A DNA stretch of 64,000 nucleotides from a bacterium (GTDB lineage Bacteria; Patescibacteriota; Minisyncoccia; UBA6257; 02-FULL-45-10c), in contig JAJYMK010000003.1 of the NCBI GenBank assembly GCA_021786945.1, forward strand, positions 240,361-304,360, read 5' to 3'. The position numbers and the translations under genes were made by a program. Each line of letters opens with the position of its first letter. Within the stretch, counting starts at the first letter, position 1. Shown here piece after piece: positions 9,002 through 27,923 of this stretch. The notes beneath the pieces are model-generated. The model did not search any database. It saw only the letters and a program-made list of their open reading frames with translations, and was not told the origin of the DNA.

Positions 9002-10009
9002 TTACCTTTTATTCAGCAAGGTTCTCTTGTAAACATCCAAGTGTGTCAAAATTATTCCTGCACCCTTAGCAACGCAGAATAATGGTTCGTCAGCTATATA
9101 AGTAGGAACCCCTGTCATTCTTTTGAAAAATTCATCTATATTTCTAAGTAAAGCACCTCCACCGGAAACAATGATTCCTTTCTCCATAATATCGGCAACT
9201 AATTCCGGGGGTGTTTCATTAAAAACGTTCTGGACCGAAGCGGCTATTTCAATAAGCTGAGGAGTTAAAGCTTCGGCAATTTCATTTGAATTTACAAGAA
9301 TATCTTTTGGAAGGCCGGAAACCAAATCCCTACCTCTTAGCTGATATTCCAATTTTTCTTTTATAGGTAAGGCTGAGCCAATCTCCATTTTAACTATTTC
9401 GGCTGTCTGTTCGCCGATGGCTAGAGAATATTTTTTCTTGATATAATCCATAATCACCTGATCGAATTTATTTCCGGCAATTCGCAAACTTGACCAAGAT
9501 ACTATACCGCCCAAAGAAACAACTGCCACCTCAGAAGTCCCGCCACCGATATTGATAATCATATTTCCCGAATATGCGTTAATCGGAATTCCCGCACCTA
9601 AAGCCGCTAAAATCGGTTCTTTTACGATATATGCTTCCTTTGCGCCGGCTTCTCTAGCGGCATTCATAACCGCCCTTCTTTCAGTCGGAGTTATTCCGGC
9701 CGGTGAAGAAATAACCACGTCGGGTTTAAACATATTGAATCTGCCATTGGCTTTTGAAATAAAATATTTCAACATGGCTTTTGTAATATAATAATCGGCA
9801 ATAACACCTTCTTTTAAAGGTCTGTAAGCCACAATATCTTCCGGGGTTCTGCCTATCATTTCCTTTGCTTCTCTTCCCACAGCCAAAACAGTATTGTCCG
9901 GAACGCTTAAGGCAACGATCGTTGGTTCATTAATAATAAATCCTTTTCCGGGAACAAAAACAATTGTATTTGCGGTACCTAGATCTATTCCTATTTTTCT
10001 GTTTAACAT
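9002..10009 (-). CDS. MreB/Mbl-like actin homolog (second paralog)
   Basis: 335 aa with IGIDLGTANTIVF and INIGGGTSEVAV; it is colinear with the mreB at 3017-4063. Confidence 0.85.
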   Translation of the reverse strand: MLNRKIGIDLGTANTIVFVPGKGFIINEPTIVALSVPDNTVLAVGREAKEMIGRTPEDIVAYRPLKEGVIADYYITKAMLKYFISKANGRFNMFKPDVVISSPAGITPTERRAVMNAAREAGAKEAYIVKEPILAALGAGIPINAYSGNMIINIGGGTSEVAVVSLGGIVSWSSLRIAGNKFDQVIMDYIKKKYSLAIGEQTAEIVKMEIGSALPIKEKLEYQLRGRDLVSGLPKDILVNSNEIAEALTPQLIEIAASVQNVFNETPPELVADIMEKGIIVSGGGALLRNIDEFFKRMTGVPTYIADEPLFCVAKGAGIILTHLDVYKRTLLNKR

Positions 10010-10019
10010 TTTTTAAAAA

Positions 10020-11282
10020 TTAATTAATTCTTTTTATATCGGCACCGATTTTTGCCAGTCTTTCGTCTATTTTTTCATAGCCTCTATCGATCTGCTCAAT
10101 GTTTCCCAAAACACTCTTACCCTTTGCCAGTAATGCCGCTATCACTAAAGTGGCTCCGGCTCTCAAATCAAGACTTTCAATCTCCGCACCTTCTAAAACA
10201 GTTGGTCCGTTTATGATTGCTCTATGAGGATCAAGAATTACCGCATCTGCACCCATTTTTTTTAATTCATTTATATATTTTAATCTGCCTTCGTACATTA
10301 TGTCAAAAATCAAAGAACTGCCCTTTGCCTGAGTAGCCAAAACCCCAAAAGGAGCCTGTAAATCAGTCGGAAAGCCAGGATAAGGTAGGGTCTGAATCTT
10401 AGCAGATTTTAAAATTGAGGCCTTGCCGTTTACTTTTAATGAGTCATTTTTTATAGAAAAAGCCACACCGAAATCTTTAAGTTTCATAAGCGGCGCATCC
10501 AAAAAATTTGGATCGCAGCCTTTTATAATAAGATCGCTTTTCGTAGCGGCGGCCAAAACCGCAAACGTTCCGGCTTCAATAGGATCATTTATTATTTTAT
10601 GCGAAACTTTCTTTGATTCAACAGAATTTCTTTTTTTGATAGTCAAAAAATTTGTTCCTATTCCGCCAATTCCAATATCTAATTTTTCCAGAAACTTACA
10701 AAGATCTACAACGTGAGGTTCACTAGCGGCTAATCTTATTTCAAGGTTATTATCGGCTGCAAACATCAATAAGTTTTCGGTTGCGGTCACGCTTATTTCA
10801 CGTAAAATAATCATTTCTTCTTTAACTTTCTCCAAACTTAAATCATATAAACCGTTTTTTTCATCAAATTCTATTATCACTCCTAATTCTTTAAAGGCCT
10901 CTAAATGAGTATCGAGCGGCCTTGCGCCAATATGACAACCGCCCGGTGTAGAAAGTTTGAATTTTTTAAACCTAGCCAAAATAGGCCCAACCAAAAGAAC
11001 CGAGGATCTTATTTTTTTTACCAAAACTTGATCAATTTTTTCCGGGAAAAATTCAGAATTATCTATCTCAATCGAATCCTCGCTTAACCACTTCTGTCTC
11101 GAACCACAGCTTTTTAATATTTCGAGCATTGTCAAAACATCTCCAATTTTAGGTATATTTTCCAAAACTACTTTCCCTTTATTCAAAATAGTAGCCGCTA
11201 TAATGGGTGTTGCCGAATTTTTAAATCCTTTTACCGCGACTTCACCCTCCAAATGCTTGCCTCCATTGATAATAAACTTCAT
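10020..11282 (-). CDS. murA: UDP-N-acetylglucosamine 1-carboxyvinyltransferase
   Basis: 420 aa, colinear with MurA. The active-site cysteine loop is PGGCHIGARP, and the N-terminus is FIINGGKHLEGEVAVKGFKNSATP. Confidence 0.9.
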   Translation of the reverse strand: MKFIINGGKHLEGEVAVKGFKNSATPIIAATILNKGKVVLENIPKIGDVLTMLEILKSCGSRQKWLSEDSIEIDNSEFFPEKIDQVLVKKIRSSVLLVGPILARFKKFKLSTPGGCHIGARPLDTHLEAFKELGVIIEFDEKNGLYDLSLEKVKEEMIILREISVTATENLLMFAADNNLEIRLAASEPHVVDLCKFLEKLDIGIGGIGTNFLTIKKRNSVESKKVSHKIINDPIEAGTFAVLAAATKSDLIIKGCDPNFLDAPLMKLKDFGVAFSIKNDSLKVNGKASILKSAKIQTLPYPGFPTDLQAPFGVLATQAKGSSLIFDIMYEGRLKYINELKKMGADAVILDPHRAIINGPTVLEGAEIESLDLRAGATLVIAALLAKGKSVLGNIEQIDRGYEKIDERLAKIGADIKRIN

Positions 11283-11325
11283 AATATATATTAACGTTTA
11301 CAGTATATATAATAACTCAATTCTA

Positions 11326-12663
11326 ATGAATCTAAAAATAAGACGCACGATTTTTTATGCATTAATAGTAATTTTCTTTGTTTTTGCATTTTTTATTATT
11401 CCCTATTCCAATGGCTGGCGTTTCGATTTTACCACTTTCAGTTTCGTAAAATTGGGTGGTCTTTATATAGAAACCGACCCCGCAGAAACGCAAATTCAAA
11501 TAGACAAGCTTAATTTTCAGATAAAATCAGGCTTTATTAAAAGCGGTTTACTGGTGGCTAATCTGTTTCCAAAAACATACCACGTTTCCGCAAGTAAAGA
11601 CGGCTATCAATCATGGAACAAGAATGTTACGGTAAAACCCTCTCTCGTAACACAAATTCACCAAGTCATTCTTCTTCCCCAGGAATGGAGCAAGGAGCTT
11701 TTGGAAGAAAACGTAAAAAATTTTTATCCGGGATCCAACTATCTTGCTTGGCAAGATAATGTTGGTAAATTAAAAATAGAAAATAAAACAATAAAAGGTA
11801 CGGATTTTGTGGCCTGGATGTCCGGCGAAAAATCAGCCTTAATTTATGATAAAGCCACAAAATCATACTTTGTTATAAATCCGACTCAAAATAATACAGC
11901 GTCTAATATAAATTTAATTTTTAATAATGCAAAAGAACAAAAAGAAATAAACGATTCGGGTACGATAAAACAAATTCTTCCTCATCCGTCAGATAAAAAT
12001 AAATTAATTTTTACGACAAATGAGTTTGTTTATCTTTTAGACTTTAATAAACCATCATTGGATATTATTAAATCTGGACAATTTAATTTATTGAAAGCAT
12101 TTAAAAATGAAATTTTTATTTCAAATTCTTCGAACCTTTATTCATATAATTTAGATTCTAAAGAATTAACTACAATATATAAATCTCCAGAAGTATCTTC
12201 GGTGGAAATTTCCGATGATAATCATTATATAGCGATTAATGCATCAAAAAAACTTATTTTACTGGACAGGAGCCAAAAAGAAAATAATGTCCTGGAATTA
12301 TCCGAAAACCCAATCAATTTCGTTTTTTCTCCGGATAGTAAAAAGATAGTCGCTATAAATACGGCTGGAGACATTAAAATATTTTTTATAGGAGACGACT
12401 ATGAACTATACAATAAAAAACCATATTCTTATTCCTTATTCAAAATCAAAAATATAGATTTGACCTATAAACCTATTTGGCACCAAAACTCTTCTTATAT
12501 CTTTTTAAAAACCCAAGATGATTTTAGGCTGCTAGAAATAGATGATTCTGCACCGATAAACTTTAATGCGATCAATGTTTCTGCTGAAAAATATTATTAT
12601 AATCAAAAAATAAATCAAATTTATATAATTCAGAATCAAAAATTATATAAACTAACAAAGTAA
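11326..12663 (+). CDS. Hypothetical N-terminally membrane-anchored protein (beta-rich, possibly a propeller-like ectodomain)
   Basis: I placed the start at the internal ATG at 11326, because the tracked ORF start overlaps murA on the opposite strand. It has a single N-terminal TM helix followed by a ~400-aa beta-rich region. I recognise no family. Confidence 0.4.
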   Translation: MNLKIRRTIFYALIVIFFVFAFFIIPYSNGWRFDFTTFSFVKLGGLYIETDPAETQIQIDKLNFQIKSGFIKSGLLVANLFPKTYHVSASKDGYQSWNKNVTVKPSLVTQIHQVILLPQEWSKELLEENVKNFYPGSNYLAWQDNVGKLKIENKTIKGTDFVAWMSGEKSALIYDKATKSYFVINPTQNNTASNINLIFNNAKEQKEINDSGTIKQILPHPSDKNKLIFTTNEFVYLLDFNKPSLDIIKSGQFNLLKAFKNEIFISNSSNLYSYNLDSKELTTIYKSPEVSSVEISDDNHYIAINASKKLILLDRSQKENNVLELSENPINFVFSPDSKKIVAINTAGDIKIFFIGDDYELYNKKPYSYSLFKIKNIDLTYKPIWHQNSSYIFLKTQDDFRLLEIDDSAPINFNAINVSAEKYYYNQKINQIYIIQNQKLYKLTK

Positions 12664-12670
12664 ACAAAAC

Positions 12671-12702
12671 AAAAAAATACCTCCAAATTGGAGGTATTTT
12701 TT
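12671..12702. terminator. Bidirectional rho-independent terminator
   Basis: An 8-bp stem (tacctcca / tggaggta) with a 3-nt loop, flanked by an A-run and a T-run. It lies between the convergent hypothetical gene and rpsI. Confidence 0.5.
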
Positions 12703-12711: not shown

Positions 12712-13194
12712 TTAACGTTTAGCCCATTGTGGAGCCCTTCTGGCTTTCTTAAGTCCATATTTCTTTCTCTCAACCATTCTTGGATCTCTTTTAAGAAAAC
12801 CAAATTTCTTAAGTCTCTTTCTAAATTCTGAATCCATTTTTACCAAGGCTCTAGAAATACCGTGTCTTACAGCCTCAGCCTGAGAAGCAATTCCTCCTCC
12901 AGTTACAATAACAGTAAAACCATTCTTTTTAAGTTCCAACACAGTTGTAGGAGCATTAACAAGTTCTTGAAGTTTTGGCATCTTAAAATACTCCTTATAA
13001 TCCTTTCCGTTTATTTTAATGCCGGAATCATTAGGATGAAGTCTTACTCTGGCTATAGAAGTTTTTCTCCTTCCAACCGCCTCAATGTATTTACCTTTGA
13101 CAGCCTTCTCTTCTTTTTTGGCAGCCTTCGGTACAGATACTTTCTTTACGGTTTCTTTTTTGGTTGTTTCTTTTTTAACTGTCTTTTTTATCAT
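12712..13194 (-). CDS. rpsI: 30S ribosomal protein S9 with Lys-rich N-terminal extension
   Basis: The C-terminal ~125 aa are colinear with S9 (GGGIASQAEAVRHGISRAL ... RRAPQWAKR). The first ~35 aa form a K/E/T-rich extension. Confidence 0.9.
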   Translation of the reverse strand: MIKKTVKKETTKKETVKKVSVPKAAKKEEKAVKGKYIEAVGRRKTSIARVRLHPNDSGIKINGKDYKEYFKMPKLQELVNAPTTVLELKKNGFTVIVTGGGIASQAEAVRHGISRALVKMDSEFRKRLKKFGFLKRDPRMVERKKYGLKKARRAPQWAKR

Positions 13195-13198
13195 ATAT

Positions 13199-13537
13199 TT
13201 ATTCGATAACTAAAAGTTTTAATCTCTTTGGTCTTAAAAAGTTCTTCGGAAGCATTCTTTCTACGGCTTTCCTCAAAACCTTAGCAGGAGATTCCGCATA
13301 AACTTCTCCCAATTTCTTCTTTTTCAAATGCCCCATGTATCCGGTATGACGATAGTAAACTTTTTGCGTCATTTTCTTTTGGGTAATATCCATTTTATCT
13401 ATATTTTTTACCCTGACTACATTGCCACCGGCCAATCTCGGTTCATAAAAAGCACTTTTCTTATTTTGTAAAATAAGAGATATGTCGGAAGCCAATCTGC
13501 CTAATTTTTTATTTTTTGCGTCAATAATATGTTCCAT
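13199..13537 (-). CDS. rplM: 50S ribosomal protein L13 (short form)
   Basis: 112 aa in the rplM-rpsI position, with a conserved basic C-terminus. Confidence 0.8.
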   Translation of the reverse strand: MEHIIDAKNKKLGRLASDISLILQNKKSAFYEPRLAGGNVVRVKNIDKMDITQKKMTQKVYYRHTGYMGHLKKKKLGEVYAESPAKVLRKAVERMLPKNFLRPKRLKLLVIE

Positions 13538-13539
13538 AA

Positions 13540-13872
13540 TTAAACAAATTCAATTAATGCTTTCGGAGCAGCGTCACGCTTTCTCTGTCCGCCAATTTTT
13601 AAAATTCTAAGATAACCGGAATTTCTGGATTTATATTTAGGGGCAATCTCATAATAAAGCTTATTAGCAGAATCCTTCGTAAATCTAGATAATAGCAATC
13701 TGAGGCTGGCCAAATTATTTTTCTTGGCCAAAGTAATACCCTTCTCAACTATAGGCCTGATTGATTTAGCCTTAGCTTCGGTTGTTTCTATCTTCTCCTT
13801 CATTATTAAATTGTGCGCCAAAGTCTTTAAAAAAAGTTTTCTTGGGCCCTTTTTCTTGTGAAACTTTCTCAT
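13540..13872 (-). CDS. rplQ: 50S ribosomal protein L17
   Basis: 110 aa, colinear with L17, directly downstream of rpoA. Confidence 0.85.
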   Translation of the reverse strand: MRKFHKKKGPRKLFLKTLAHNLIMKEKIETTEAKAKSIRPIVEKGITLAKKNNLASLRLLLSRFTKDSANKLYYEIAPKYKSRNSGYLRILKIGGQRKRDAAPKALIEFV

Positions 13873-13874
13873 AA

Positions 13875-14639
13875 TTATTTTGATTTCTTTTTAGAGGTTT
13901 TCTTTTCTTTTTTTTCTTTCTCCGGTTCGGCGGAAGTAATAGCCAAAACTTCGATTTTAGAAATTTTATCAAAATGATCCTTCAAAATATTACTGGCTTT
14001 ATGAACGGCGGACGAAGGCGTAATGCTACCATCGGTCACAACTTCCAATTTGAGCCTATTGTAATCCGTCCTGTCACCTACGCGCATATTTTCTACGGTA
14101 AAATTAACTTTAACTACCGGAGAAAAAAGAGAATCTAAAGCAATTGTGCCGATAGGTAATTTTTCAAACTTTCTGGCTTCAACTGGTACATATCCAAGTC
14201 CTTTTTCAACTTTCAATTCTATATCCAATTCAGCGGATTTTGCGGATAAAGTAGCGATATGAATATCTGGAGTAATAATTTCGATTTGGGATCCGGCTTC
14301 AATGTCGCTAGCAAGTACCTCTTTTTCTCCTTTAACTTTTAAAGTTAAGGTTTGAGCTTCGTCGGTAAGAAGTCTGAATCTCACTTTCTTAAGATTGAGA
14401 CAAATTTCAACAACGTCTTCTAAAATGTTAGGCAAGGTAGAAAATTCATGGTCAGCTCCCTTTATCTTAACTTGAGTTATAGCGGCGCCCGGTAAAGAAG
14501 AAAAAAGAGTTCTTCTTAAAGCATTTCCCAGGGTTAAGCCGTAACCATTATATAATCCTTCAATTTCAAAAACTCCATTAGTGATGGTTTCGGAAACTTT
14601 TTTAATACTTACGGACTCGCTTAAATATGTAAATTCCAT
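13875..14639 (-). CDS. rpoA: DNA-directed RNA polymerase alpha subunit, NTD only with Lys-rich tail (no recognisable alphaCTD)
   Basis: Residues 1-235 are colinear with the alphaNTD (dimerisation and beta/beta-prime contact regions). The protein ends at 254 aa with EKEKKEKKTSKKKSK where the ~80-aa alphaCTD would follow. Confidence 0.85.
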   Translation of the reverse strand: MEFTYLSESVSIKKVSETITNGVFEIEGLYNGYGLTLGNALRRTLFSSLPGAAITQVKIKGADHEFSTLPNILEDVVEICLNLKKVRFRLLTDEAQTLTLKVKGEKEVLASDIEAGSQIEIITPDIHIATLSAKSAELDIELKVEKGLGYVPVEARKFEKLPIGTIALDSLFSPVVKVNFTVENMRVGDRTDYNRLKLEVVTDGSITPSSAVHKASNILKDHFDKISKIEVLAITSAEPEKEKKEKKTSKKKSK

Positions 14640-14649
14640 ATTTGTTTAA

Positions 14650-15267
14650 TTATTGTTTTGAGTAAAAATCGACGACCATGTTGATATCAAAAGGAAATTC
14701 AGAATCTGAAGGAATGGAAACCATCTTACCCTCTAATTTTTCCGGATCTAAATTAAGCCAAACTGGGGCATTATATTTTTGTAAATTTGCCACTAAATCT
14801 TTAAACACCGGATGATCCTTGGATTGCGGCCTGATAGAAAACTTATCGCCTACCTTAGCCAAAAAAGAAGGAATAGTAACTTTTTTGCCGTTAACCAAAA
14901 TATGTCCGTGACCAATAAGCTGTCTGGCAACCGAACGGGAAGGAGCAAAGCCAAGTCTGAAAATTACATTGTCTAGTCTTGTTTCTAAAAGCTGAACAAC
15001 GGCATTGCCTGTAACCTCAGCTTTCTTTGAAGCTGTTTGAAAAACTTTTTTGATTTGAGCCTCTCTTAAACCGTAAGAAAACCTAATTTTCTGCTTTTCA
15101 TTCAATTGTTGCCCATATTCAGATTTAGCGCCTCTCCTACCGGCACCATGAACGCCCGGCTTAGCCTGCCTTCTAACGGTAGCACATTTAGCAGAATTAC
15201 AACGATGGGCTTTTAAGAAAAGTTTTGTACCTAATGATCTTTCTTTTTTTTCTCTAGTGTCAAACAT
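14650..15267 (-). CDS. rpsD: 30S ribosomal protein S4
   Basis: 205 aa. It has the S4 N-terminal Zn-ribbon-like region and the S4 RNA-binding domain, in the canonical S11-S4-rpoA position. Confidence 0.9.
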   Translation of the reverse strand: MFDTREKKERSLGTKLFLKAHRCNSAKCATVRRQAKPGVHGAGRRGAKSEYGQQLNEKQKIRFSYGLREAQIKKVFQTASKKAEVTGNAVVQLLETRLDNVIFRLGFAPSRSVARQLIGHGHILVNGKKVTIPSFLAKVGDKFSIRPQSKDHPVFKDLVANLQKYNAPVWLNLDPEKLEGKMVSIPSDSEFPFDINMVVDFYSKQ

Positions 15268-15277
15268 ATTTTATAAA

Positions 15278-15733
15278 TTAAATTCTTCTTGTTTTTACTG
15301 GCCTTGGACCGTTATGAGGAATAGGTGTAACATCTCTGACAGATAAAATATTGAATCCTTGGTTAGCAAATGATCTGACAGAAGAATCTCTTCCCCCGCC
15401 GATACCATTAACCATAACATGTAAATTAACCGGACCTGTCTTCTTTAACTTTTCTGCTAAAGCAGCAACAACTTTGGAAGCCGCAAACGGAGTAGCTTTT
15501 TTAGGTCCTGAAAAACCCAAAGCTCCGGCCGAAGACCAAGCAAGTAAATTACCCTTATCATCGGTAACAGAAATCAAGGTATTGTTGTAAGTAGCTTTAA
15601 TATAAGCATTGCCGGTATCTATCTTCTTTGAAGAAGATTTTGCTCCAGCCTTAACAATGGCGTTTTCCACTTTGTCTTTTTCAACTAAAGCCGCTTCTTT
15701 ATTTTCGTTTTTTGCTACCTTCTTTTTTCCCAT
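15278..15733 (-). CDS. rpsK: 30S ribosomal protein S11 with Lys-rich N-terminal extension
   Basis: The C-terminal 120 aa are colinear with S11 (GNAYIKATYNNTLISVTD ... PHNGPRPVKTRRI). Confidence 0.9.
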   Translation of the reverse strand: MGKKKVAKNENKEAALVEKDKVENAIVKAGAKSSSKKIDTGNAYIKATYNNTLISVTDDKGNLLAWSSAGALGFSGPKKATPFAASKVVAALAEKLKKTGPVNLHVMVNGIGGGRDSSVRSFANQGFNILSVRDVTPIPHNGPRPVKTRRI

Positions 15734-15751
15734 AATTAATAATTTTTGTGT

Positions 15752-16135
15752 TTACTTAAGTTCAATCTTTCTCTTACCGCTGCCGGCTGTCTTTCTGACG
15801 TTACCACGCACGGTTCGTGAATTGGTTTTTGTTCTCTGTCCCCTTACCGGCAATCTGCGCATATGTCTTGCGCCTCTATAGGTTTGCAAATCTTTCAACA
15901 TGCCAATATTTTGCTTAATGATCTGCTTCAATTCACCTTCAACCTTATAATTCTTTTCAATATACTCTTTTATTTTGTTTAATTCGTCAGCGGTTAGGTC
16001 TTTAGCGCGCTTATCCATATCGATTTTTGTATTTTTCAAAATATCACGCGACAAAGTACGCCCAACGCCATAAAGATAAGTTAAGGAAATCTCAACTCTT
16101 TTGTTATCCGGAATATTTATGCCTAATAATCTCAT
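15752..16135 (-). CDS. rpsM: 30S ribosomal protein S13
   Basis: 127 aa (MRLLGINIPDNKRVEISLTYLYGVG ...) with a basic C-terminal tail. Confidence 0.9.
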   Translation of the reverse strand: MRLLGINIPDNKRVEISLTYLYGVGRTLSRDILKNTKIDMDKRAKDLTADELNKIKEYIEKNYKVEGELKQIIKQNIGMLKDLQTYRGARHMRRLPVRGQRTKTNSRTVRGNVRKTAGSGKRKIELK

Positions 16136-16146
16136 AATAATATAAA

Positions 16147-16261
16147 ATTAACCTTGTCTTTGTTTATGTTTTGTTATTTTGCAAATAATGCAAACTCGGC
16201 CCTTTCTTCTGACGACCTTACAATTATTACAAACTTTTTTTACAGATGCTCTAACCTTCAT
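16147..16261 (-). pseudogene. rpmJ: 50S ribosomal protein L36 gene with an apparent 1-nt insertion in a C4/G4 homopolymer (frameshift)
   Basis: Not in the ORF track. The first 20 codons translate to [20 protein letters not shown]. After the GGGG run at 16199-16202 the frame switches, and the -1 frame gives [17 protein letters not shown]-stop. Together these make a perfect 37-aa L36 with the C-x2-C-x12-C-x4-H zinc ribbon. As written, the gene reads through to a stop after 32 aa. Confidence 0.6.
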
Positions 16262-16271
16262 ATAATAAAAA

Positions 16272-16484
16272 TTATAGTCTTCTTGTAATTCTTCCACGAG
16301 TTTCATCGTAAGAACTAACTTCAAGTAAAACTTTATCGCCTGGTAATATTTTAATATAATTCATGCGCATTTTACCAGAAAGATGCGCGAGAATTTTTTT
16401 ATCTCCGCTTTTAACCCTAAAATTAGTCCCGGGAAGGGCCTCTTCAACTATGCCTTCCAGTTTCTTTACTGAATCTTCGCTCAT
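16272..16484 (-). CDS. infA: Translation initiation factor IF-1
   Basis: The 70 aa from the internal Met ([24 protein letters not shown]...[24 protein letters not shown]) are colinear with IF-1. I judge the longer tracked ORF start an artefact, because it overlaps the upstream gene. Confidence 0.85.
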
Positions 16485-16524
16485 AATAAAAACGGTATGT
16501 AAAAATATAGCACATGGCCATATT

Positions 16525-18162
16525 TTAGTCAACCGTAATATTTATCTTATTTAATTTGTTCGGAACCTTTTTTACCCAAAATGGCCAAAGAGAAATATTT
16601 GCAGTATCTAAACCAGGCAAAGCGAATATAATTTTCTTCAATTCAACATCTGTTTTACCCATAATTTCAGATTTCAATTTATCGACGTCTATTTTATAGC
16701 TTAAAACCGCCTTGTAGTTAACCGGAAAACTAAGCCTTCCATTAGCTGAATCCATTCTTGCAATTCCGTAGTCCAATGTATAACTTTTTACACCATAAAT
16801 ATCATTATTTTCAGATTCCGCTTTTTGTTTTAATAAATCAATCAGATCGGCTTCTTTAAAGGCTATTATAGTAAGTTGTGCGTCGGCGAAAATAGAAAAA
16901 TTACCGTCTTTATCAACATCGGTATTGTTCGTCTGCTTAGTTATTGAAAAAGATGAAGCGCCGTCTAAAATTTTAAAGTCACTAGAAATCTGAGCATAAA
17001 TAGTTGTTTTTAAATTATTTTCTAATGTATCTTTTATTTTTTTGGTCGCATCGGAAATATCAGAAGCCGTAGGATACGCAACCTCTCCGACAAAACCTCC
17101 GGACATACTATTTTTGGATTCCCCATAAAAAGCCTGATATTTAGGTGTACCTTTAAAACCAGGAATAGAAAAAAGTTTAACCGGGCCCAAATTATAATCT
17201 TCGCCTGCTTTTTCAGCTACGACGCTAGCATCAATACTAGAAGGTAATATTTTTCCTTCAGATATCTTAGCTCCGGGAACTACAATTTTTTTTGTCAGCA
17301 AAAATATTTTTCCGTCAGGAGAAAGAAACCTGGTATTCTGAACCAAGGTCTGGGCATCAGAACTATAACTATTGTAAATGGTAATTGTTCCTGTAGCTTT
17401 ATTTGAAACTTGTTTTTTACCCGTTGCCGGAAAAAACATAGTTGTATTTTTTGTAGAAGTGAATTTCTGGTTGGGAATAGTTAACGTCTTTGGATCAATT
17501 TTCGCGGAAACCTGTGTAATAATAGAATCGTTGTAAGCCCAGTCTATTTTTTTAGTAACAATTTTTAAATCGGCTTTAGGTAAAAAAACTATCGCTCCAT
17601 AAACAATAAAAACTAAAACCAAAAAACCTAAAATAAATTTAAAGTTTATTTTATTTAGGAAAGATTCCTTTTCTTCATTTTCTTCCCAAGCCCCTTCAAT
17701 TTTATTTAATTCCGGTTCCGGCTCCATTTTAACCACCCTTGTTTTTTCTTCCCCATAAAAATTTTTCTTGGTTAAATCCCCTGCCTCAAGATTATTGGAA
17801 AGCCTTTCAATAAACTCCTCTTCTTTTCTCCATGCAGCTGTAGCTCGTGTTTTTTTGGGTGAAGCTTTTTCTTTTTTGGGAATGATATCAGAAAATTGCC
17901 TTTTATTTTTTATAAAAAAAGGATTAACCGCTTCTATGCCGGCGAGCTCAGCTAATTCTATAACCCTATTGTCTACTGATTCGATAAGAATTTTTTTATC
18001 TATCGCATCGGCCTCTCTTTTCAATAAATGAAAATTACCCAAAGACTCTGAGAGTTGGGAAAATCTCGGAATAATTAAAACAATTTCTCCTGCATCAGCT
18101 TCTATAATTTTTTCAACAATAAGAGCAGCTTCATCGCTCTTGTTTATGTTTATTTTTTTCAT
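16525..18162 (-). CDS. Hypothetical bitopic membrane protein (about 180 aa cytoplasmic, one TM, about 340 aa extracytoplasmic beta-rich domain)
   Basis: There is a single strong TM helix ([21 protein letters not shown]). It sits where secY-adk-map normally precedes infA. I recognise no family. Confidence 0.5.
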
Positions 18163-18166
18163 TAAT

Positions 18167-19375
18167 TTAAGACAGTAACCATCTTACCCTTCTATTTGCC
18201 AGATAACTTATTTTTTCATTTTTCGGCATTGACGAAAGCTCCAACAAAACAGAAGAAAGAGTCATCAAATTTTTTATTTTTTTCACTGACTTACTAAATT
18301 GTACCGTAAATCCAAAGTTTTTCATAATTAAATCGGTGGATAATAATTGCACTTTAAAATTTTTATTGAATTTTGACTCAAAACGGTCCGATATCAAACA
18401 AGCCGGTAAGCTAAAATAGGGATTTATGAATATCTTTCCGCTTTCCGGAGCCAAAGATTCGATCCCATTGGCCAATACCCTGCATTCTTCTATAAAAATA
18501 TTTTCTAATTTTTTAATCATATAAGGAGATGCGTGGTTTTTATTATAAAGATCAATAATATCCCTGGAAACAGTCTCATCCAATTTAAAGCTATTTTGTA
18601 AACTTTGAAGCAAAGAATTTTCACCCCAATCAAAACTGTCTATGTGGTAAAGATGCCCGGTCGAAGCATGAAAAACAGAAGTCTGATTCGGAAATAAATT
18701 CACTAAAAATAAAGACTTTAAATCATTAAAAGAATTAAGTAAAGAATGGGATAAAGTCGTTCCGGCTTCGCTCACAAAAATTATTTTGTTAGCGGGCATT
18801 ACTTCCCTGATACCTTTTATAAAATCCCTTACCCCAAAAGTTTCACTAAGATATATTTCTATAGATTTCGCCTTAAAACCAAGGGGATTTATAATTTTAT
18901 GGCCATCTACTTTTATCCCCCTTATACGAACATCACTCAAAAGCACATCAATTTCTTCTACACCCATTTTTTTCGCTGCCTTAGGACGTTGTTTGTCAAA
19001 AAATCTCCAAATCGATTGGGAAATTAAATTATCCAAATCCGCTTCATCAATAATTTCCTTTGGTTTCGAACGCACCAAAGAAACCGAAGAATAAATAGTG
19101 AGCGCTAATTTAGAATCCAGATTTAAAATAACATTATATTCCGAATGTTTCGGTATCTTTTTTATTATTTTTCTTATTTCTTTCAGTAAGTACAAGGCCT
19201 CTAAACTATTTATATCCCTTATCCAGTTTTTTGATATAAATATTTGTTTGCCTAAAAAATCCGCCTTCAAAAGCGTAATTTGCAGATAATGATTCACGAC
19301 CTCAATTACCAAAAAATTCGGGTTTTTATCCGTAAATCTATCCAATATTCCTTTTAAAAATTTGAGGTCTAACAC
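18167..19375 (-). CDS. Hypothetical protein, possibly a divergent FtsA/PilM-like actin-fold ATPase
   Basis: 402 aa. Blocks resembling actin-fold phosphate and adenosine motifs (LVIEVVNHYLQI, IIFVSEAGTT, VNLFPNQTSVF) are weak and unverified. It is translationally coupled to the downstream membrane protein (4-nt gap). Confidence 0.4.
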   Translation of the reverse strand: MLDLKFLKGILDRFTDKNPNFLVIEVVNHYLQITLLKADFLGKQIFISKNWIRDINSLEALYLLKEIRKIIKKIPKHSEYNVILNLDSKLALTIYSSVSLVRSKPKEIIDEADLDNLISQSIWRFFDKQRPKAAKKMGVEEIDVLLSDVRIRGIKVDGHKIINPLGFKAKSIEIYLSETFGVRDFIKGIREVMPANKIIFVSEAGTTLSHSLLNSFNDLKSLFLVNLFPNQTSVFHASTGHLYHIDSFDWGENSLLQSLQNSFKLDETVSRDIIDLYNKNHASPYMIKKLENIFIEECRVLANGIESLAPESGKIFINPYFSLPACLISDRFESKFNKNFKVQLLSTDLIMKNFGFTVQFSKSVKKIKNLMTLSSVLLELSSMPKNEKISYLANRRVRWLLS

Positions 19376-19451
19376 ATTTAATTATAACATCATATGCGAA
19401 AAAACAAGAAATGCCATAAAACAGTGCATAATTACCTAAATTTTTACCAAT

Positions 19452-19483
19452 AAAAAACCCGCAATTTTCATTGCGGGTTTATT
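19452..19483 (-). terminator. Rho-independent terminator downstream of the small Zn-ribbon gene
   Basis: A 10-bp perfect stem (aaacccgcaa / ttgcgggttt) with a 6-nt loop, followed on the minus strand by a T-run. Confidence 0.55.
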
Positions 19484-19484: not shown

Positions 19485-19769
19485 TTATCCTCTTATCAAT
19501 CCTTCCGTTTTAGACTCGAGTTTTTCTTCGGTCTCGTGGCCGCAACTTATACATATTTTGCGGCTATATATGTATTTTGTAACCACGAAGCCACCAGCTG
19601 TATAAAATTGAGACTTATCTTGCCTCCTAGAAACAAAAGCCCTTAATTTTCCGCAATTCGGACACTTTCTGGGAAAACAAAAACATATAATTGCAGAAAC
19701 TGAAATGATAAGGAAGGCTATAAATCCCATAGTCAATAGAATTAACGGCACCCGAATATAATCAGGCAT
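19485..19769 (-). CDS. Small membrane protein with C-terminal CxxC...CxxC zinc-ribbon
   Basis: 94 aa with an N-terminal TM helix, then CPNCG ... CISCGH. It has its own terminator. Confidence 0.45.
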   Translation of the reverse strand: MPDYIRVPLILLTMGFIAFLIISVSAIICFCFPRKCPNCGKLRAFVSRRQDKSQFYTAGGFVVTKYIYSRKICISCGHETEEKLESKTEGLIRG

Positions 19770-19838: not shown

Positions 19839-21680
19839 TTACTTTATAAGGAATTTTATCCTTCTGGTTCCGGCACCAACCGACTCCTGCTTCTGAATTT
19901 TAAAACTACCCACCTGCAAAGTATGTTCAACATGTGGTCCACCGCAAAATTCAATGCTGTAAGCCTTTTCGTTACTTCCTCCTTTAGGCCCAACAAAATA
20001 AACCTTCACTATATTTGGATATTTCTCCTTGAAAAAGAACAAAGCTCCGGTTTTTTTGGCTTCTTCAATAGGCATTTCCTTAAAATAAACCGGCAAATCC
20101 CGATTGATAATATCGTTTACCTCGTTCTCAACTTTTTTGACTTCTTCTTCAGTAAGTTTTCTGGTAAAAGAAAAATCAAACCTGCCCCTTTCCGGATTGA
20201 TATCCGAACCCATTTGCTTTACCTCATCCCCAAGAGTATTTCTCAAAGCTTTTTGGAGTAAATGCGTTGCCGTGTGAAGCCTAATAACTTTTTCCATGTC
20301 TTCATTCGATCCAGCCTTCAATTCACCAGTATCCAATACCAAACCGTGACCGCCAAATTTTTTCTCAGCTCCGGCGCGAGAAGTTTCCTGGTGTTTCTTA
20401 TATTCTTCATCAAAACCAGCTTCATCAAAAATAATTTGCTTCTCCTTACAAAACTCCTGCATTAATTCTTTTGGAAAACCATAAGTTTCATAAAGTGAAA
20501 ATGCGTCATAACCAGAAAGAAAAACTTTTTTCTTAAGACCAACAAGTTCTCGTAAATTTTCAACAAAAGACTGGCTTTTCTTTTCCGAAATTAAATTATT
20601 AAAAATTTTTAAACCATCACTCAAAGCTTTAGCAAATTTACCTTTTTCTTCATAATAGACATTGAGAATCTCTTCTTTGTTTTTTACTTCCGGGTATATA
20701 TCGCCAAAAATTTCATTGACGTTCTCCAAAACCAAAGTAAAAAGATCGGCATGAATATCATATTTAGAGCTATAGGCCAAAACTCTTCTCAAAAGTCTTC
20801 GTAAAATATAACCTGCCTCCTTATTTGAAGGCCTGACACCGTCAGCTATCAAAAATATTGAAGCCCTCAAATGATCAGCTAAAATTCTTATAACCGAAGG
20901 CTCCAAATCATGACTTACTTCATGAATTTGCTTTATAATCGAAGCAAATAAATCGGTTTCAAAAACATTATCAACCCCTTGCATCATGGTAACCAAACGT
21001 TCCAATCCCATGCCGGTATCAACACCGGGAACAGCCAGTTTGTTAAAATTACCGTCCTTATCTTTAAAGTATTCGTTAAAAACAACATTCCAAATTTCAA
21101 CACCTATTCCGGCCTTAGCATCCTCGGGACTTTTAGCTACATAGATTTCTGTTGTCGGACCGCAGGGGCCTTCGTTGCCGGTAGGACCCCACCAATTATC
21201 GGCTCTGCCACTTCTTCTGATTTGTTCCTTAGGTAAACCTATTTCTTCATGCCAAATTTTATAAGATTCTTTATCTTCTGGAGTTGTTGGATCACCGGCG
21301 AAGACAGTCACATAAATCCTATCTCTTTCTATGCCCAATTCTTCAATTACAAATTCATAAGCATAACGAATAGCTTCTTTTTTCAAATAACCTCCAAAAG
21401 AAAAATTACCGAGCATTTCAAAAAAAGTAAGATGAGTATTATCACCAACTTCTTCAATATCGGAAGTCCTGAAACATTTCTGAACTGAAGTAGCATTTTT
21501 ACTTCCAAAATCCCTCACAGCATCGGCTTTGCCGACATAATAAGGCTTAAATTGCTGCATGCCAGCTGTAGTAAGCAAAACAGACGGGTCATCCGGTAAA
21601 AGCGAAGATGATTTTACAATTGCATGTCCCTTTTTCTTAAAAAATTCTAAAAACTTATTTCTAATTTCTTTTGAACTCAT
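19839..21680 (-). CDS. alaS: Alanyl-tRNA synthetase, C-terminally short form (no C-Ala/DHHA1-like domain)
   Basis: The N-terminus is MSSKEIRNKFLEFFKKKGH. The editing-domain motifs HTATHLL and CGGPHV are present. 613 aa against about 870 for full-length. Confidence 0.9.
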   Translation of the reverse strand: MSSKEIRNKFLEFFKKKGHAIVKSSSLLPDDPSVLLTTAGMQQFKPYYVGKADAVRDFGSKNATSVQKCFRTSDIEEVGDNTHLTFFEMLGNFSFGGYLKKEAIRYAYEFVIEELGIERDRIYVTVFAGDPTTPEDKESYKIWHEEIGLPKEQIRRSGRADNWWGPTGNEGPCGPTTEIYVAKSPEDAKAGIGVEIWNVVFNEYFKDKDGNFNKLAVPGVDTGMGLERLVTMMQGVDNVFETDLFASIIKQIHEVSHDLEPSVIRILADHLRASIFLIADGVRPSNKEAGYILRRLLRRVLAYSSKYDIHADLFTLVLENVNEIFGDIYPEVKNKEEILNVYYEEKGKFAKALSDGLKIFNNLISEKKSQSFVENLRELVGLKKKVFLSGYDAFSLYETYGFPKELMQEFCKEKQIIFDEAGFDEEYKKHQETSRAGAEKKFGGHGLVLDTGELKAGSNEDMEKVIRLHTATHLLQKALRNTLGDEVKQMGSDINPERGRFDFSFTRKLTEEEVKKVENEVNDIINRDLPVYFKEMPIEEAKKTGALFFFKEKYPNIVKVYFVGPKGGSNEKAYSIEFCGGPHVEHTLQVGSFKIQKQESVGAGTRRIKFLIK

Positions 21681-21705: not shown

Positions 21706-22749
21706 TTATTCTTCTAAATTTTCAGGGAGCTGTAAAGTCTCCGATTCTATCCCTGAAGAAGCCCCGGTAATTTTCAAAACATCTTTATCTATCTTTGCCA
21801 ATTCTTTTGAAGCGCTATTGTACATATTTACGGTAGTTCCTAAATGCCCGCCAAGCTTTTTCATGAAAGTTTCATAGCTTCCGATATGTTTACCCAAATT
21901 CTCTACGCGCTTCCTTATTTCCTTGGCAGATTCTTCAATCTGAAGCATTTTCAATCCCTGCAAAACCGTCTGCAAATAAGCCAAAAAAGAAGTTGGAGAC
22001 ACTATGATTACTTTCTTTTCTTTAAAAGCATACTGGATCAGATCCTGAGTATTTGTTTTGATGGCGCCAACCTTATTTATCAACAAATCATAATAAATAC
22101 CTTCGGCAGGAATAAACATAAATGCAAATTCCATTGTTCCCTCTTCGGGTTTTATATATTTTGAAGTTTCATCAATTCTGTTTTTAAGATCCTGCTTAAA
22201 AACTTTTTCGAGTTCAGCATGCCTCACCGGATCATTTTCCTCAATAATCCTATTGTAATTTTCCAAGCTAAATTTTGAGTCTATAGGAATTATTTTATCT
22301 TTAACAAAAATAACAGCATCAACAATGGAACCATCTTTAAATTTATACTGCATCTGATATTGACCGGGGGGAATCACATTTTTCAGAAGCGAATCCAAAA
22401 AATATTCACCGAGCACACCTCGCTGTTTTGGATTTTTCAAAATATCCTGCAAATTTTTAAGCTGATCAGCCATACTAAAAACTTGCTTCTGCCCCTCGCC
22501 CACTTTCGTAAGTTCTTGAGTAATTTCCTTTATCAAACGATTACTTTCCGACATCTGCCTCTGCATTGTTTCGGACATTTCCCCCTTGCTTATATCCAGC
22601 CTTCTTGTTATTTCATGAAGCTGATTTTGCAATAATAAAAGCGAATCACTTTTTGGGGATTCTTTTTGTTTTTTTAAATAAACAAAAATAACCGAAAAGC
22701 CGATAATCAAAACAGCTAGCACTATAAATAATAAAATTTCTGAAGACAT
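21706..22749 (-). CDS. rmuC: DNA recombination protein RmuC
   Basis: An N-terminal TM helix, a long coiled coil, and a C-terminal nuclease-like domain with the FAFMFIPAEGIYY block typical of the RmuC family. Confidence 0.75.
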   Translation of the reverse strand: MSSEILLFIVLAVLIIGFSVIFVYLKKQKESPKSDSLLLLQNQLHEITRRLDISKGEMSETMQRQMSESNRLIKEITQELTKVGEGQKQVFSMADQLKNLQDILKNPKQRGVLGEYFLDSLLKNVIPPGQYQMQYKFKDGSIVDAVIFVKDKIIPIDSKFSLENYNRIIEENDPVRHAELEKVFKQDLKNRIDETSKYIKPEEGTMEFAFMFIPAEGIYYDLLINKVGAIKTNTQDLIQYAFKEKKVIIVSPTSFLAYLQTVLQGLKMLQIEESAKEIRKRVENLGKHIGSYETFMKKLGGHLGTTVNMYNSASKELAKIDKDVLKITGASSGIESETLQLPENLEE

Positions 22750-23617: not shown

Positions 23618-25783
23618 TTAATCCAATTTAATCGATAAAACTTTTGAAACGCCATCTTCCTCCATTGTTACACCATAAAGAACATCAGATGACTCCATAG
23701 TTGATCTATTATGAGTAACAATAATAAACTGGGATTTTTTAGAAAAATCTTTGATAAGTTCCGCGAATCTTCTGGTGTTTTTTTCATCCAATGCGGCATC
23801 AACTTCATCCAAAACCAAAAACGGCGGAGGGCTTACGGAAATCAAAGCAAATAGCACCGCAATTGAAACCAAACTCTTTTCTCCTCCGGAAAGCATTTCC
23901 AATCCTTTAATTTTTTTACGCGGAATAACCAATTCTAAATCAATACCGGCCGACAATTCGTCGTCTTCTTCATCGGCTTCCGGTTCTTTTACCGCCTGTT
24001 GAGCTTCGTCGGCCAAACCTTCATCGGGTAAAACCTGCTTCTTTGGTTCTGGTTTTTCCAAATAAAGTTTTCCTTTGCCGCCGCCAAACATAAGTTGGAA
24101 AAATTTATTAAACTCTTCATTTATCTTACCCAAAGAAGAAGAAAAATCATTGTGAATTTTTATATCCAGGTCTTTAATTAAAGTGCTCAAATCGTTTGAG
24201 GCCTTCTCTAAATCAGCCAACTGGGTAGATAAGAAATTAAATCTGGTTTCGGTTTCTTTGGCTTCATTAAGCAGCGCCTGATCAATTTCGCCTACACTGG
24301 CCACCTCCGCCCGTAATTTAAATATTCTTCTTTCGGCTTCGAATATATTTACAGCTTCTATGTTTTCCAACCCAGCTTTCAATTCATTTATATTTTTACC
24401 CGCCTGAGAAATCTGAGTTTCAAGATCCTGCATTCTTAGATTAAACCTCTCTGTATCGAAATGAATCCTATTTTTCTCCGATTCCAGCCCGGCTATTTCA
24501 TCTTTTTTGGCTTCAACTAATTGAAAAGATTTTCTGAATTCAGAATTAAAACTTTCCAAATCAGCCGAAAAACCAAATTCCATTTTCTTCAAATTTTCCA
24601 ATTCTTTTATAATCTCGGAAAGCTGAGAAGAAAGCTTATCTTTGCTGGCTTTGAATTCGGCCAATTCTTTAGATACGCCAGCCTCGTTTCCAAACTGCAA
24701 AAAATTATCTATTTTTGAAAAGATTTCGTTTAAAACTGTTTTTATTTTTATTAAATCGCTTTCTTCAGAAAGATTTTTTATAACAGACTTTAAATCATTC
24801 AAAACTACAATAGCTTTTTTTGGATCAACTTCAGTATTAGATGAAAATTCTATTTTCACTTCCAATCTTCCCAATTCTTTTTCTAAAACTGATTTTTTAT
24901 TTAAAAGCTCCTCTCTCTTTAATTGAAGACTATCCAATTGAGCTTTGTTGCTCGGCCTGCTATTTTCTACCTTACTTAACTGTTCATGTAAAACTTTAAG
25001 TTCGGAATTTTTATGAACTAATGCAGTATCTATTTCTTTAAGTCTGGGAGAAAATTTTTCCAAACCAACAAAAATTTCCTTCAATTTATTTTTAAAATAA
25101 ACAGATTCGAGGTCGTTTAATTCTTTTTCGGTTTCACCAAGCTTTTCCCATTTAGCGGTTTGTTTTTTTAAAAATCTCAGATGCGGGCCAATTTCATCCA
25201 GCATTACGCGAACCTTATCTATATTTATTCCAGTATTTTTCAGTTTTCTTTGCGCTTCCTGTTTCTTAATCTGATACTGCCTAAGACCCAAAATCTCCTC
25301 AATCATTTCTCTTCTTTCTTTCGGAGTTGATTTAACAAAAAGATCACTTTCACCCTGATTTATAACGGTTAATCCGTGCGTACCAAGCCTGGCTTTAGCA
25401 AAAAAATCAATTATATCTTTAAGTCTGACCTCGGCTTTATTCAAAAAATATTGGGAAATTCCGTCCCTGTCTATTCTTCGCACGATGGAAACTTCGGAAA
25501 AATCTACCGGAAAAAAGCCGGAACTGTTATCGAAAATCAAAGAAACCTGAGCCATGCCCATTCTGGGCCTCTTTTGTGTTCCTGCAAAAATCAAATCTTC
25601 GGCTTTATCGCCTCGCAAATTCTTGGCTTCACGCTCACCTAAAATCCAACGCACCGCATCAAGCACATTGCTCTTACCGCTGCCGTTCGGACCGACAATG
25701 CCGGCAATACCTCCGGGAAATTCCAAAATAGTTTTGTCCGCAAAAGATTTAAAACCTACCAATTCTAAACGTTTAAGTAACAT
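23618..25783 (-). CDS. smc: SMC-like chromosome segregation ATPase, short (hinge not evident)
   Basis: The N-terminal head MLLKRLELVGFKSFADKTILEFPGGIAGIVGPNGSGKSN is near-colinear with bacterial SMC. The C-terminal head has the signature LSGGEKSL and the Walker B FLVLDEVDAALD. The ~390-aa middle is coiled coil with no Gly-rich hinge. 721 aa against about 1180. Confidence 0.75.
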   Translation of the reverse strand: MLLKRLELVGFKSFADKTILEFPGGIAGIVGPNGSGKSNVLDAVRWILGEREAKNLRGDKAEDLIFAGTQKRPRMGMAQVSLIFDNSSGFFPVDFSEVSIVRRIDRDGISQYFLNKAEVRLKDIIDFFAKARLGTHGLTVINQGESDLFVKSTPKERREMIEEILGLRQYQIKKQEAQRKLKNTGINIDKVRVMLDEIGPHLRFLKKQTAKWEKLGETEKELNDLESVYFKNKLKEIFVGLEKFSPRLKEIDTALVHKNSELKVLHEQLSKVENSRPSNKAQLDSLQLKREELLNKKSVLEKELGRLEVKIEFSSNTEVDPKKAIVVLNDLKSVIKNLSEESDLIKIKTVLNEIFSKIDNFLQFGNEAGVSKELAEFKASKDKLSSQLSEIIKELENLKKMEFGFSADLESFNSEFRKSFQLVEAKKDEIAGLESEKNRIHFDTERFNLRMQDLETQISQAGKNINELKAGLENIEAVNIFEAERRIFKLRAEVASVGEIDQALLNEAKETETRFNFLSTQLADLEKASNDLSTLIKDLDIKIHNDFSSSLGKINEEFNKFFQLMFGGGKGKLYLEKPEPKKQVLPDEGLADEAQQAVKEPEADEEDDELSAGIDLELVIPRKKIKGLEMLSGGEKSLVSIAVLFALISVSPPPFLVLDEVDAALDEKNTRRFAELIKDFSKKSQFIIVTHNRSTMESSDVLYGVTMEEDGVSKVLSIKLD

Positions 25784-27921: not shown

Positions 27922-27923
27922 GC

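Follow-up and report, generated by a model that had tools for sequence, protein, structure and literature searches.

Two adjacent open reading frames (ORFs) lie directly upstream of infA on the minus strand of the 64-kb stretch analysed here (contig JAJYMK010000003.1; the whole stretch is hereafter called the window). They encode proteins of 402 and 545 aa, which we refer to as p402 (GTG start) and p545. On balance, we lean towards the view that p402 and p545 together make up a new type of scaffold across the membrane, resembling PilM-PilN or FtsA-FtsN, because an FtsA/PilM-type protein adjoins a bitopic membrane protein and conservation is found both in the cytoplasmic parts and in the ectodomain. 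No paper on the pair was found in our literature searches.

18167-19375, minus strand: p402, predicted cytoplasmic protein with an FtsA/PilM-type actin fold and without the canonical nucleotide-binding loops
16525-18162, minus strand: p545, predicted bitopic membrane protein, N-terminus taken as inside and C-terminus as outside
16272-16484, minus strand: infA (initiation factor IF1, 70 aa, corrected ATG start), first gene of its operon (Pfam eIF-1a, 2.6e-21)

A gene pair conserved upstream of infA

Both p402 and p545 are real genes, since each has hundreds of full-length homologues and a fold predicted with high confidence. A word-seeded search retrieved 126 homologues of p402, of which a single one is annotated (as 'Actin-like ATPase involved in cell division-like protein'). 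An exhaustive profile search extended the family to 930 clusters at 50% identity with E <= 1e-3, 259 of them with E <= 1e-30, and the matches listed were mostly full-length. More than 500 homologues were found for p545. The homologue records carry the names Patescibacteria, Candidatus Harrisonbacteria, Wolfebacteria, Paceibacter and Paceibacterota, and the window therefore belongs to the Paceibacteria (Parcubacteria) branch of the Candidate Phyla Radiation.

We compared 35 related loci, of which 32 came from GTDB contigs with one genome per species and three (L035-L037) from a distant sub-branch. In every GTDB locus not cut by a contig end, p402 is followed by p545; both genes are present in 30 of the 32, and the pair is followed by infA in 30 of the 32 as well as in the three distant loci. 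The order p402-p545-infA-rpmJ-rpsM-rpsK-rpsD-rpoA-rplQ-rplM-rpsI is kept down to 28% identity to p402. The distant loci (profile E ~1e-45) show the matching order and continue with mreB and holB after rpsI, as does the window. On the other side, p402 has alaS as its upstream neighbour in all 35 loci; the alaS-p402 interval varies from ~27 nt to 7 kb and contains unrelated genes, and the p402-p545 distance ranges from 0 to ~210 nt (4 nt in the window). Thus, the constant unit is p402-p545-infA. The sequence is strongly conserved (mean column identity, 48%), and the GC content of ~33-36% shows no local anomaly at p402/p545.

Because the gene order holds across the 35 loci and the p402 family is large, the pair is a lineage-wide, indeed class-wide, feature. 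The first-pass annotation, made from the letters of the window, had described the two ORFs directly upstream of a canonical run from infA to rplQ, and this arrangement was confirmed, with rplM-rpsI following. A strain-specific insertion, which it had considered as the opposing scenario, is ruled out. Two local rearrangements were observed among the relatives: a gene for a PDZ-domain protein (11361-12440) is inserted between p545 and infA in a Paceibacter locus (L007), and rplQ (11223-11552) has moved between infA and rpmJ in a Harrisonbacteria locus (L009).

p402 is predicted to share the FtsA/PilM fold without canonical nucleotide-binding loops

The AlphaFold2 model of p402, built on an alignment of 69 sequences, reached a predicted local distance difference test score (pLDDT) of 90.5 and a predicted template-modelling score (pTM) of 0.88. 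When the PDB was searched with this model using Foldseek, ranks 1-29 were exclusively PilM or FtsA structures (E 3.7e-16 to 1.9e-11). The PilM structures were 5eoy_A (3.7e-16, the top match), 5eox_B (2.3e-15), 2ych_A (1.7e-13), 5eou and 3jc8, and the FtsA structures were 4a2a (1.2e-15), 1e4f, 7q6i, 7q6d and 3wqt, the best TM-scores coming from FtsA (7q6i_D, 0.58/0.63). Other proteins of the ASKHA superfamily (ParM, EutJ and sugar kinases) matched at 1e-8 or weaker, and ParM-type actins with a 1B subdomain at 1.9e-6. By these matches, the modelled p402 belongs with FtsA and PilM, the actin-superfamily branch that carries a 1C subdomain where ParM-type actins have 1B, and the model does not separate FtsA from PilM as the nearest fold. 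The soluble character assumed from the letters is borne out by the lack of any hydrophobic segment in p402.

The relationship was not recovered at the sequence level. The window protein matched no Pfam or NCBIfam model, FtsA and SHS2_FTSA included, at E <= 1, and none of the 69 family members matched the Pfam FtsA/PilM models, including PilM_2, at E <= 0.1. A sequence-profile search of the PDB gave no significant match to p402 and did not retrieve FtsA. Comparison of the family with E. coli FtsA (E 0.24) and E. coli HofM (E 0.047 over 41 columns only) by hhalign was not significant. As judged by these searches, p402 is not a member of the FtsA or PilM sequence families. The earlier proposal of an actin-fold protein of a divergent FtsA/PilM kind therefore holds for the fold, but not for the family models or the nucleotide-binding motifs.

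In p402, the beta1-beta2 (phosphate-1) hairpin reads IEIxNHY, in which the acidic E25 is kept and glycine is missing, the phosphate-2 hairpin reads NLFPNQT where FtsA has DIGGGT, and the adenosine motif reads NPFFxLP without GG. No conserved glycine was found at the three loops across alignments A1 and A3, and the loop positions are variable in the wider 81-sequence alignment. The best local hhalign alignment, the non-significant one with E 0.24, pairs FLVNLFPNQT of p402 with CVVDIGGGTM of E. coli FtsA. The family alignment, mapped onto predicted strands and not derived from structural superposition, indicates that p402 has other sequences at the places of the three nucleotide-binding loops that are canonical for the actin superfamily.

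Conservation of p402 is concentrated in the following two regions.

18830-19117, minus strand: p402 residues 87-182, predicted 1C-type subdomain, the best-conserved part (boundaries approximate, from the secondary structure of the model)
18170-18217, minus strand: p402 residues 387-402, C-terminal tail with (K/N)RRxRWL, conservation 0.76

In alignment A1, mean column conservation reaches 0.77 in the 1C subdomain and ~0.5 in the rest of the protein; the corresponding values in the wide alignment A3 are 0.49 and ~0.3. R395, R396, W399 and L400 of the tail are invariant in A1. The hydrophobic moment of the tail is 0.58 (family median, 0.66), compared with a median of 0.50 and a 95th percentile of 0.78 for the internal controls and with 0.78 for the targeting helix of E. 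coli FtsA, so that the terminal helix does not look clearly amphipathic. Selection on p402 appears to act on protein-binding surfaces rather than on catalysis, which suggests that p402 is probably a pseudo-ATPase. Given the apparent loss of the canonical ATP-binding loops, a nucleotide-independent adaptor is its most likely role.

p545 is a predicted bitopic protein with a baseplate-wedge-like ectodomain

p545 contains one strongly hydrophobic helix (Kyte-Doolittle 19-residue maximum of 2.97 at residue 176), preceded by ~173 residues and followed by ~350. The model has an overall pLDDT of 85 and divides the protein as follows.

17884-18162, minus strand: p545 residues 1-93, predicted cytoplasmic alpha/beta domain of four beta-alpha units (pLDDT 94-97, conservation 0.78)
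17647-17883, minus strand: p545 residues 94-172, disordered K/E/S/P-rich linker (pLDDT <50, conservation 0.24)
17578-17646, minus strand: p545 residues 173-195, single transmembrane helix (helix 174-193 in the model)
16528-17577, minus strand: p545 residues 196-545, predicted ectodomain, baseplate-J-wedge-like (Foldseek)
17119-17400, minus strand: p545 residues 255-348, GlxA-type beta-barrel within the ectodomain (Pfam PF21110)

We assume that the N-terminus is inside because p545 has no signal peptide. The first-pass annotation had recognised a bitopic partner of p402, and the single transmembrane helix and the ectodomain of ~350 aa agree with it; its cytoplasmic domain of 180 aa, however, resolves into a fold of 93 aa and a disordered linker of ~80 aa, the length of which varies from 35 to 107 aa across the family. 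The N-terminal domain is compact in the model over residues 1-80 (pLDDT ~95), with disorder setting in over residues 90-171, and showed no significant sequence match in PDB or Pfam; TFIIH p8 and STAS, which came up as possible relatives at E >= 0.04, were dismissed as chance matches. Conservation of p545 is highest in the barrel (0.79) and in this N-terminal domain.

The ectodomain is well predicted and consists of beta-rich and alpha/beta parts. The first-pass annotation had proposed that it might resemble PilN, PilO or FtsQ, but no structure of PilN, PilO, FtsQ, POTRA or SPOR was among its top 50 Foldseek matches. It instead matched baseplate J wedge proteins of cyanophage A-1(L) (8kea_d, 2e-7), phage Mu (9ki1_O, 6e-6) and Pa193 (9b45, 1.7e-4), together with the beta-barrel of Streptomyces GlxA (5lxz, 2.4e-7). 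In the BFVD viral library, many 'Baseplate J-like' proteins were matched (4.6e-7 to 1e-3). The baseplate matches have a probability of ~1.0, but a TM-score of ~0.17 and a root-mean-square deviation of >20 Å over ~350 columns. The Pfam GlxA model PF21110 matches 52 of 62 p545 family members, and window p545 falls just under the gathering score (25.8 versus 27 bits). In the model, the barrel is thus solid, and equivalence to the whole wedge is only suggestive because the global TM-scores are low.

No significant match to p545 was obtained in the PDB sequence-profile search, and neither Pfam Baseplate_J nor any PHROGs family matched it. The pair as a whole has no PHROGs or PADLOC match and no relatives on IMG/VR viral contigs. 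A prophage origin was rejected on the basis of the gene context and this lack of viral-contig relatives, and it is largely refuted by the synteny. p545 is a cellular gene and not a prophage remnant, and the module is neither phage-borne nor a known defence system.

The pair and the infA operon have separate promoters

The reported overlap of p545 with infA depends on an 86-aa infA ORF starting from TTG 16532, an over-extension that is also made in public gene calls. IF1 proteins of relatives align from ATG 16484, which gives the normal IF1 length of 70 aa and a 40-nt spacer after p545. On this alignment the overlap is a start-codon artefact, and the 48 extra nucleotides of the over-extended call hold the infA promoter. 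The following signals were located.

19455-19480, minus strand: intrinsic terminator with an 11-bp stem and T-run after the 94-aa ORF, closing the upstream alaS unit
19381-19389, minus strand: extended -10 element of p402, TGTTATAAT, 5 nt upstream of the GTG start
16504-16532, minus strand: infA operon promoter of the sigma-70 type, TTGACT-N17-TGCTATATT, with (TG)CTATATT as the -10 box

Comparable elements with a hairpin and T-run precede p402 in many relatives. Among 28 loci (L001-L028), 24 have TGnTAnnnT 5-8 nt before the in-frame GTG of p402 (in one of them, 11 nt before an ATG), whereas the motif has a background frequency of 0.23 per kb. Because the -10 element is so close to the start, the p402 mRNA is probably leaderless and GUG-initiated. 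The IF1 gene lies just downstream of the pair that this putative conserved leaderless GUG mRNA would encode. The -35 box of infA overlaps the last codons and the stop of p545 (GTT GAC TAA). In 24 of 27 loci, infA is immediately preceded by a -35 box of the TTGAC type and a -10 box, the position of which shifts with the length of the spacer.

With its own predicted promoter behind a terminator and a conserved promoter for infA, the pair is best described as its own transcription unit preceding a separately promoted infA operon. Co-transcription with infA, which the overlap had been taken to imply, thus loses its basis. Read-through from the pair into infA is possible because no terminator was found between p545 and infA in the window, but it is not required for infA expression. 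One relative (L010) appears to have a terminator at this position.

secY, adk and map, which the first-pass annotation had noted as lacking upstream of infA, are indeed absent from the window, in which every ORF of suitable size was scanned, and from the flanks of the 35 related loci. In two relatives with long alaS-p402 gaps (L005 and L007), the search for these genes upstream of p402 met only unrelated or unannotated ORFs. The distant relatives have the order rpsG-fusA-dnaG-rpoD-alaS-tsaC-p402, and the ribosomal super-operon is therefore fragmented across the lineage as a whole. The spc operon ends with secY-adk-map and the alpha operon starts at infA; in E. coli, infA, adk and map sit apart from the ribosomal cluster. 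The absence of the three genes was correctly noted, but a break between the spc and alpha operons is not unusual in itself, and the interest of the locus lies in the uncharacterised class-wide module.

A trans-membrane scaffold and its alternatives

In the scaffold that we lean towards, p402 would be the cytoplasmic, nucleotide-independent adaptor. We infer that it docks via its 1C subdomain and/or its RRxRWL tail onto the 93-residue cytoplasmic domain of p545, from which a flexible linker and one transmembrane helix would lead to a rigid and highly conserved ectodomain outside. The actin-like platform would hold the cytoplasmic end of the bitopic protein and thereby position an extracytoplasmic assembly, a design that recurs in PilM-PilN, FtsA-FtsN and GspL. 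Since the conservation of the ectodomain equals that of a housekeeping protein, contact with a conserved component of the envelope, or oligomerisation of the wedge-protein kind, is more likely than binding to host surfaces that vary. The task of the scaffold would probably lie in envelope morphogenesis, through division or elongation, or in a platform for surface appendages. Ectodomain conservation and the neighbourhood (alaS, infA, mreB, murA, PBP2 and mreC) argue for envelope morphogenesis over recognition of variable hosts.

Several points weigh against this scaffold. Adjacency of p402 and p545 alone is no proof of contact. The likeness to baseplate J consists of Foldseek E values of 1e-7 to 1e-5 with a global TM-score of 0.17 and a large root-mean-square deviation, and the only part with sequence-profile backing is the beta-barrel, which is sub-threshold in window p545. 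The charge bias around the p545 helix, which bears on the assumed topology, is weak (+1.9 before and +1.3 after). The loop loss of p402 is read from a sequence alignment on predicted secondary structure, and a non-canonical nucleotide site may exist. Finally, p402 might be the only FtsA of the lineage.

A more far-reaching reading, which we regard as tentative, is that the pair belongs to an undescribed envelope machine of the Paceibacteria as a whole, in which a nucleotide-free platform and the bitopic protein would carry an extracellular gpJ-like ring or hub made from a domesticated baseplate-wedge domain.

It is unlikely, though worth weighing, that p402 is the true, diverged FtsA of the lineage, tethering FtsZ via its C-terminal tail, with p545 as a late-divisome partner in the role of FtsN, FtsQ or DivIB. 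FtsA structures fit the p402 model as well as PilM does and give the best TM-scores (7q6i_D), the conserved basic/aromatic C-terminal helix of p402 is located at the position of the membrane-targeting helix of FtsA, and the 1C subdomain, which in FtsA is the surface recruiting downstream divisome proteins, is conserved. The setting is one of housekeeping and morphogenetic genes (alaS, infA, ribosomal-protein genes, mreB and murA), and the only named homologue entry refers to cell division. On the other hand, no ftsZ, ftsQ or dcw cluster adjoins the pair in any of the 35 loci, none of the 69 members matches the Pfam FtsA models, and the ATP motifs appear to be lost. The hydrophobic moment of the tail lies within the range of the internal controls, and its sequence-specific invariance is unlike that of generic membrane-targeting helices. 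The ectodomain of p545 shows no likeness to POTRA, FtsQ or SPOR among its top 50 matches. In addition, an annotated ftsA is reported as expressed in Patescibacteria generally (PMC9938205).

We consider it rather improbable that the pair acts as PilM-PilN does, as the inner-membrane platform for a type IV pilus or for a competence-like filament by which Patescibacteria attach and take up DNA. The top PDB match of p402 is PilM (5eoy), and a gene for an actin-like protein followed by one for a bitopic protein with its N-terminus facing the cytoplasm mirrors the pilM-pilN order. In the window, three large pilin-like proteins with N-terminal methylation motifs are encoded, but their genes are >19 kb away, and no pilO, pilB, pilC or pilT adjoins the pair in any locus. 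None of the 69 members matches Pfam PilM, and PilM binds ATP, the motifs for which seem to be absent from p402. p545 is also unlike a PilN-type protein: its 545 aa include a cytoplasmic domain that is folded, where PilN has a short N-terminal peptide, and its ectodomain is baseplate-J-like rather than ferredoxin-like as in PilN/PilO.

That p402 and p545 act independently and are adjacent only by inherited gene order is very unlikely. The gap of 0 to ~210 nt among relatives means that tight translational coupling is not universal, but every locus not cut by a contig end has the two genes side by side and in unchanged orientation, at identities as low as 28%, in contrast to the variable stretch before p402, and conservation peaks in just the two cytoplasmic parts that could meet. 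It is scarcely credible that the pair is left over from a prophage or tailocin whose baseplate gene was domesticated, or that it was inserted in this strain alone and has no conserved function: phage baseplate wedge proteins are the best structural matches of the ectodomain, but no other phage genes are nearby, PHROGs, PADLOC and IMG/VR gave no relatives, the GC content of the pair equals that of its surroundings, and the strongly conserved pair (48% mean column identity) holds a fixed position among housekeeping genes across a class-level lineage.

Neighbouring genes in the window

All genes in the part of the window around p402 and p545 are on the minus strand, in the 5'-3' order SMC, a 221-aa ORF, rmuC, alaS, a 94-aa ORF with a transmembrane helix and zinc ribbon, p402, p545 and infA. 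Downstream of p545, infA-rpmJ-rpsM-rpsK-rpsD-rpoA-rplQ-rplM-rpsI span 12712-16484.

23618-25783, minus strand: SMC
21706-22749, minus strand: rmuC
19839-21680, minus strand: alaS
16148-16261, minus strand: rpmJ
12712-13194, minus strand: rpsI

The 94-aa ORF (19485-19769, minus strand), which lies between alaS and p402, combines one transmembrane helix with a CxxC...CxxC zinc ribbon. It was found only in the closest relatives L003 and L004 (41-42% identity) and is outside the conserved module. Two of the neighbouring proteins are shortened, typical bacterial alanyl-tRNA synthetases and SMC proteins being much longer: the synthetase encoded by alaS has 613 aa, and in relatives only its catalytic and SAD domains were matched; the SMC-family protein has 721 aa.

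A rod-shape gene set, full for an ultra-small bacterium, occupies 18-4063 and 9002-11282 on the minus strand. It comprises two MreB paralogues (3017-4063 and 9002-10009), MreC (2322-3002), a possible MreD without a Pfam match (1872-2318), a PBP2-type transpeptidase (18-1865) and MurA (10020-11282). A plus-strand ORF of 486 aa (11203-12663), for which Pfam gave no match, shares 80 nt with the start of murA and converges on rpsI at a perfect bidirectional terminator hairpin (12672-12702).

The stretch at ~27900-29700 has a GC content of 45% against ~35% for the genome, gives no Rfam match and carries overlapping ORFs on both strands, among which a small one (28497-28919, minus strand) resembles sigma-70 region 4. 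It may be foreign or mobile DNA adjoining the strand switch at dnaE. The three large proteins with the N-terminal pilin methylation motif (403-497 aa; 38262-39491, 43351-44562 and 53044-54537, minus strand) differ in their C-terminal modules, which are of the Fib_succ_major, fibronectin type III and Laminin_G/pentraxin-like kinds, and look like type IV pilin-like adhesins.

Significance of the pair

A large part of bacterial diversity belongs to the Patescibacteria. Next to nothing is known of their cell biology, however, and the conserved genes specific to their lineage are for the most part unannotated. The pair is as conserved and as stably placed as the adjoining ribosomal genes, which points to a core function. 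An FtsA/PilM-type platform apparently free of ATP-binding motifs has not been described before together with a membrane-anchored ectodomain related to baseplate wedges. If the two proteins do form a trans-membrane complex, they would be a new example of actin-fold adaptors coupling the cytoplasm to the envelope and a candidate for division, shape or attachment where the canonical machinery is reduced. To our knowledge, the baseplate module has so far been seen only inside phage tails and in the cytoplasmic baseplate of the type VI secretion system; the tentative envelope machine would put it to use at the cell surface and might take the place of a canonical divisome or pilus platform or work beside one.

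Two corrections follow for annotation: the infA start is mis-called in public gene sets, and the pair is not to be treated as part of the ribosomal-protein operon proper. In addition, the conserved -10 box 5-8 nt before the GTG suggests leaderless GUG initiation in this lineage.

Comparison with known systems

PilM-PilN (2ych, 5eou), which belongs to the inner-membrane alignment subcomplex of type IVa pili, shares with p402 the actin-like fold and the 1C-type subdomain (Foldseek ~1e-16 to 1e-13), and in both systems the gene for a bitopic protein with a cytoplasmic N-terminus directly follows. The presumed common logic is that a cytoplasmic platform clamps the cytoplasmic end of its membrane partner. 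In contrast to PilM, p402 has no sequence membership in the family and apparently no ATP-binding loops. PilN measures ~200 aa, begins with a short peptide and has a periplasmic domain of the ferredoxin-like type, whereas p545, at 545 aa, starts with a cytoplasmic domain of 93 folded residues, continues with a long disordered linker and ends in an ectodomain like that of baseplate J; moreover, pilO, pilP, pilQ, pilB and pilC are not found near p402-p545.

FtsA, with its partners FtsN and FtsQ, fits the p402 fold equally well (1e4f, 4a2a and 7q6i; best TM-scores of 0.55-0.63). Both proteins end in a conserved C-terminal basic/aromatic helix, and the 1C subdomain is a prominent conserved surface in both. 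Unlike FtsA, p402 is encoded outside a dcw/ftsZ neighbourhood, matches neither Pfam FtsA nor SHS2_FTSA, seems to have lost the nucleotide motifs and has a tail that is sequence-invariant (RRxRWL) rather than generically amphipathic. The ectodomain of p545 differs from the POTRA and SPOR domains of the FtsA partners. p402 shares the fold of FtsA and PilM and would probably work as they do, but departs from both in sequence, motifs and gene context.

GspL/EpsL of type II secretion is a conceptual analogue of p402: its cytoplasmic domain is PilM-related and actin-like, is not known to bind nucleotide and serves as a pure membrane-tethered adaptor. Whereas p402 and p545 are separate proteins, a single GspL chain contains both the actin-like domain and the bitopic part. 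GspL was not among the top 50 structural matches of p402, and no secretion ATPase gene is found near the pair.

The ectodomain of p545 aligns over ~350 columns, barrel included, with the baseplate wedge J proteins (the family of P2 gpJ, Mu gp47 and T4 gp6; 8kea, 9ki1, 9b45 and BFVD entries), of which TssF of the type VI secretion system is the cellular relative. Unlike these proteins, p545 would be membrane-anchored and extracytoplasmic, and no tail, sheath or hub genes stand alongside; it has no sequence match in PHROGs and no viral-contig relatives, and the low global TM-scores imply a different domain arrangement. The sole sequence-profile match of p545 is the GlxA beta-barrel (PF21110; Streptomyces lividans GlxA, 4unm). 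GlxA, a copper radical oxidase, carries out catalysis in a propeller domain, to which nothing in p545 corresponds. p545 is neither PilN/PilO nor FtsQ/FtsN, and it is linked to the folds of baseplate J and the GlxA barrel, not to phage families by sequence or context. Together with p402, it forms a pairing of a putative actin-fold adaptor and a bitopic partner, a combination of building blocks that has not been described before.

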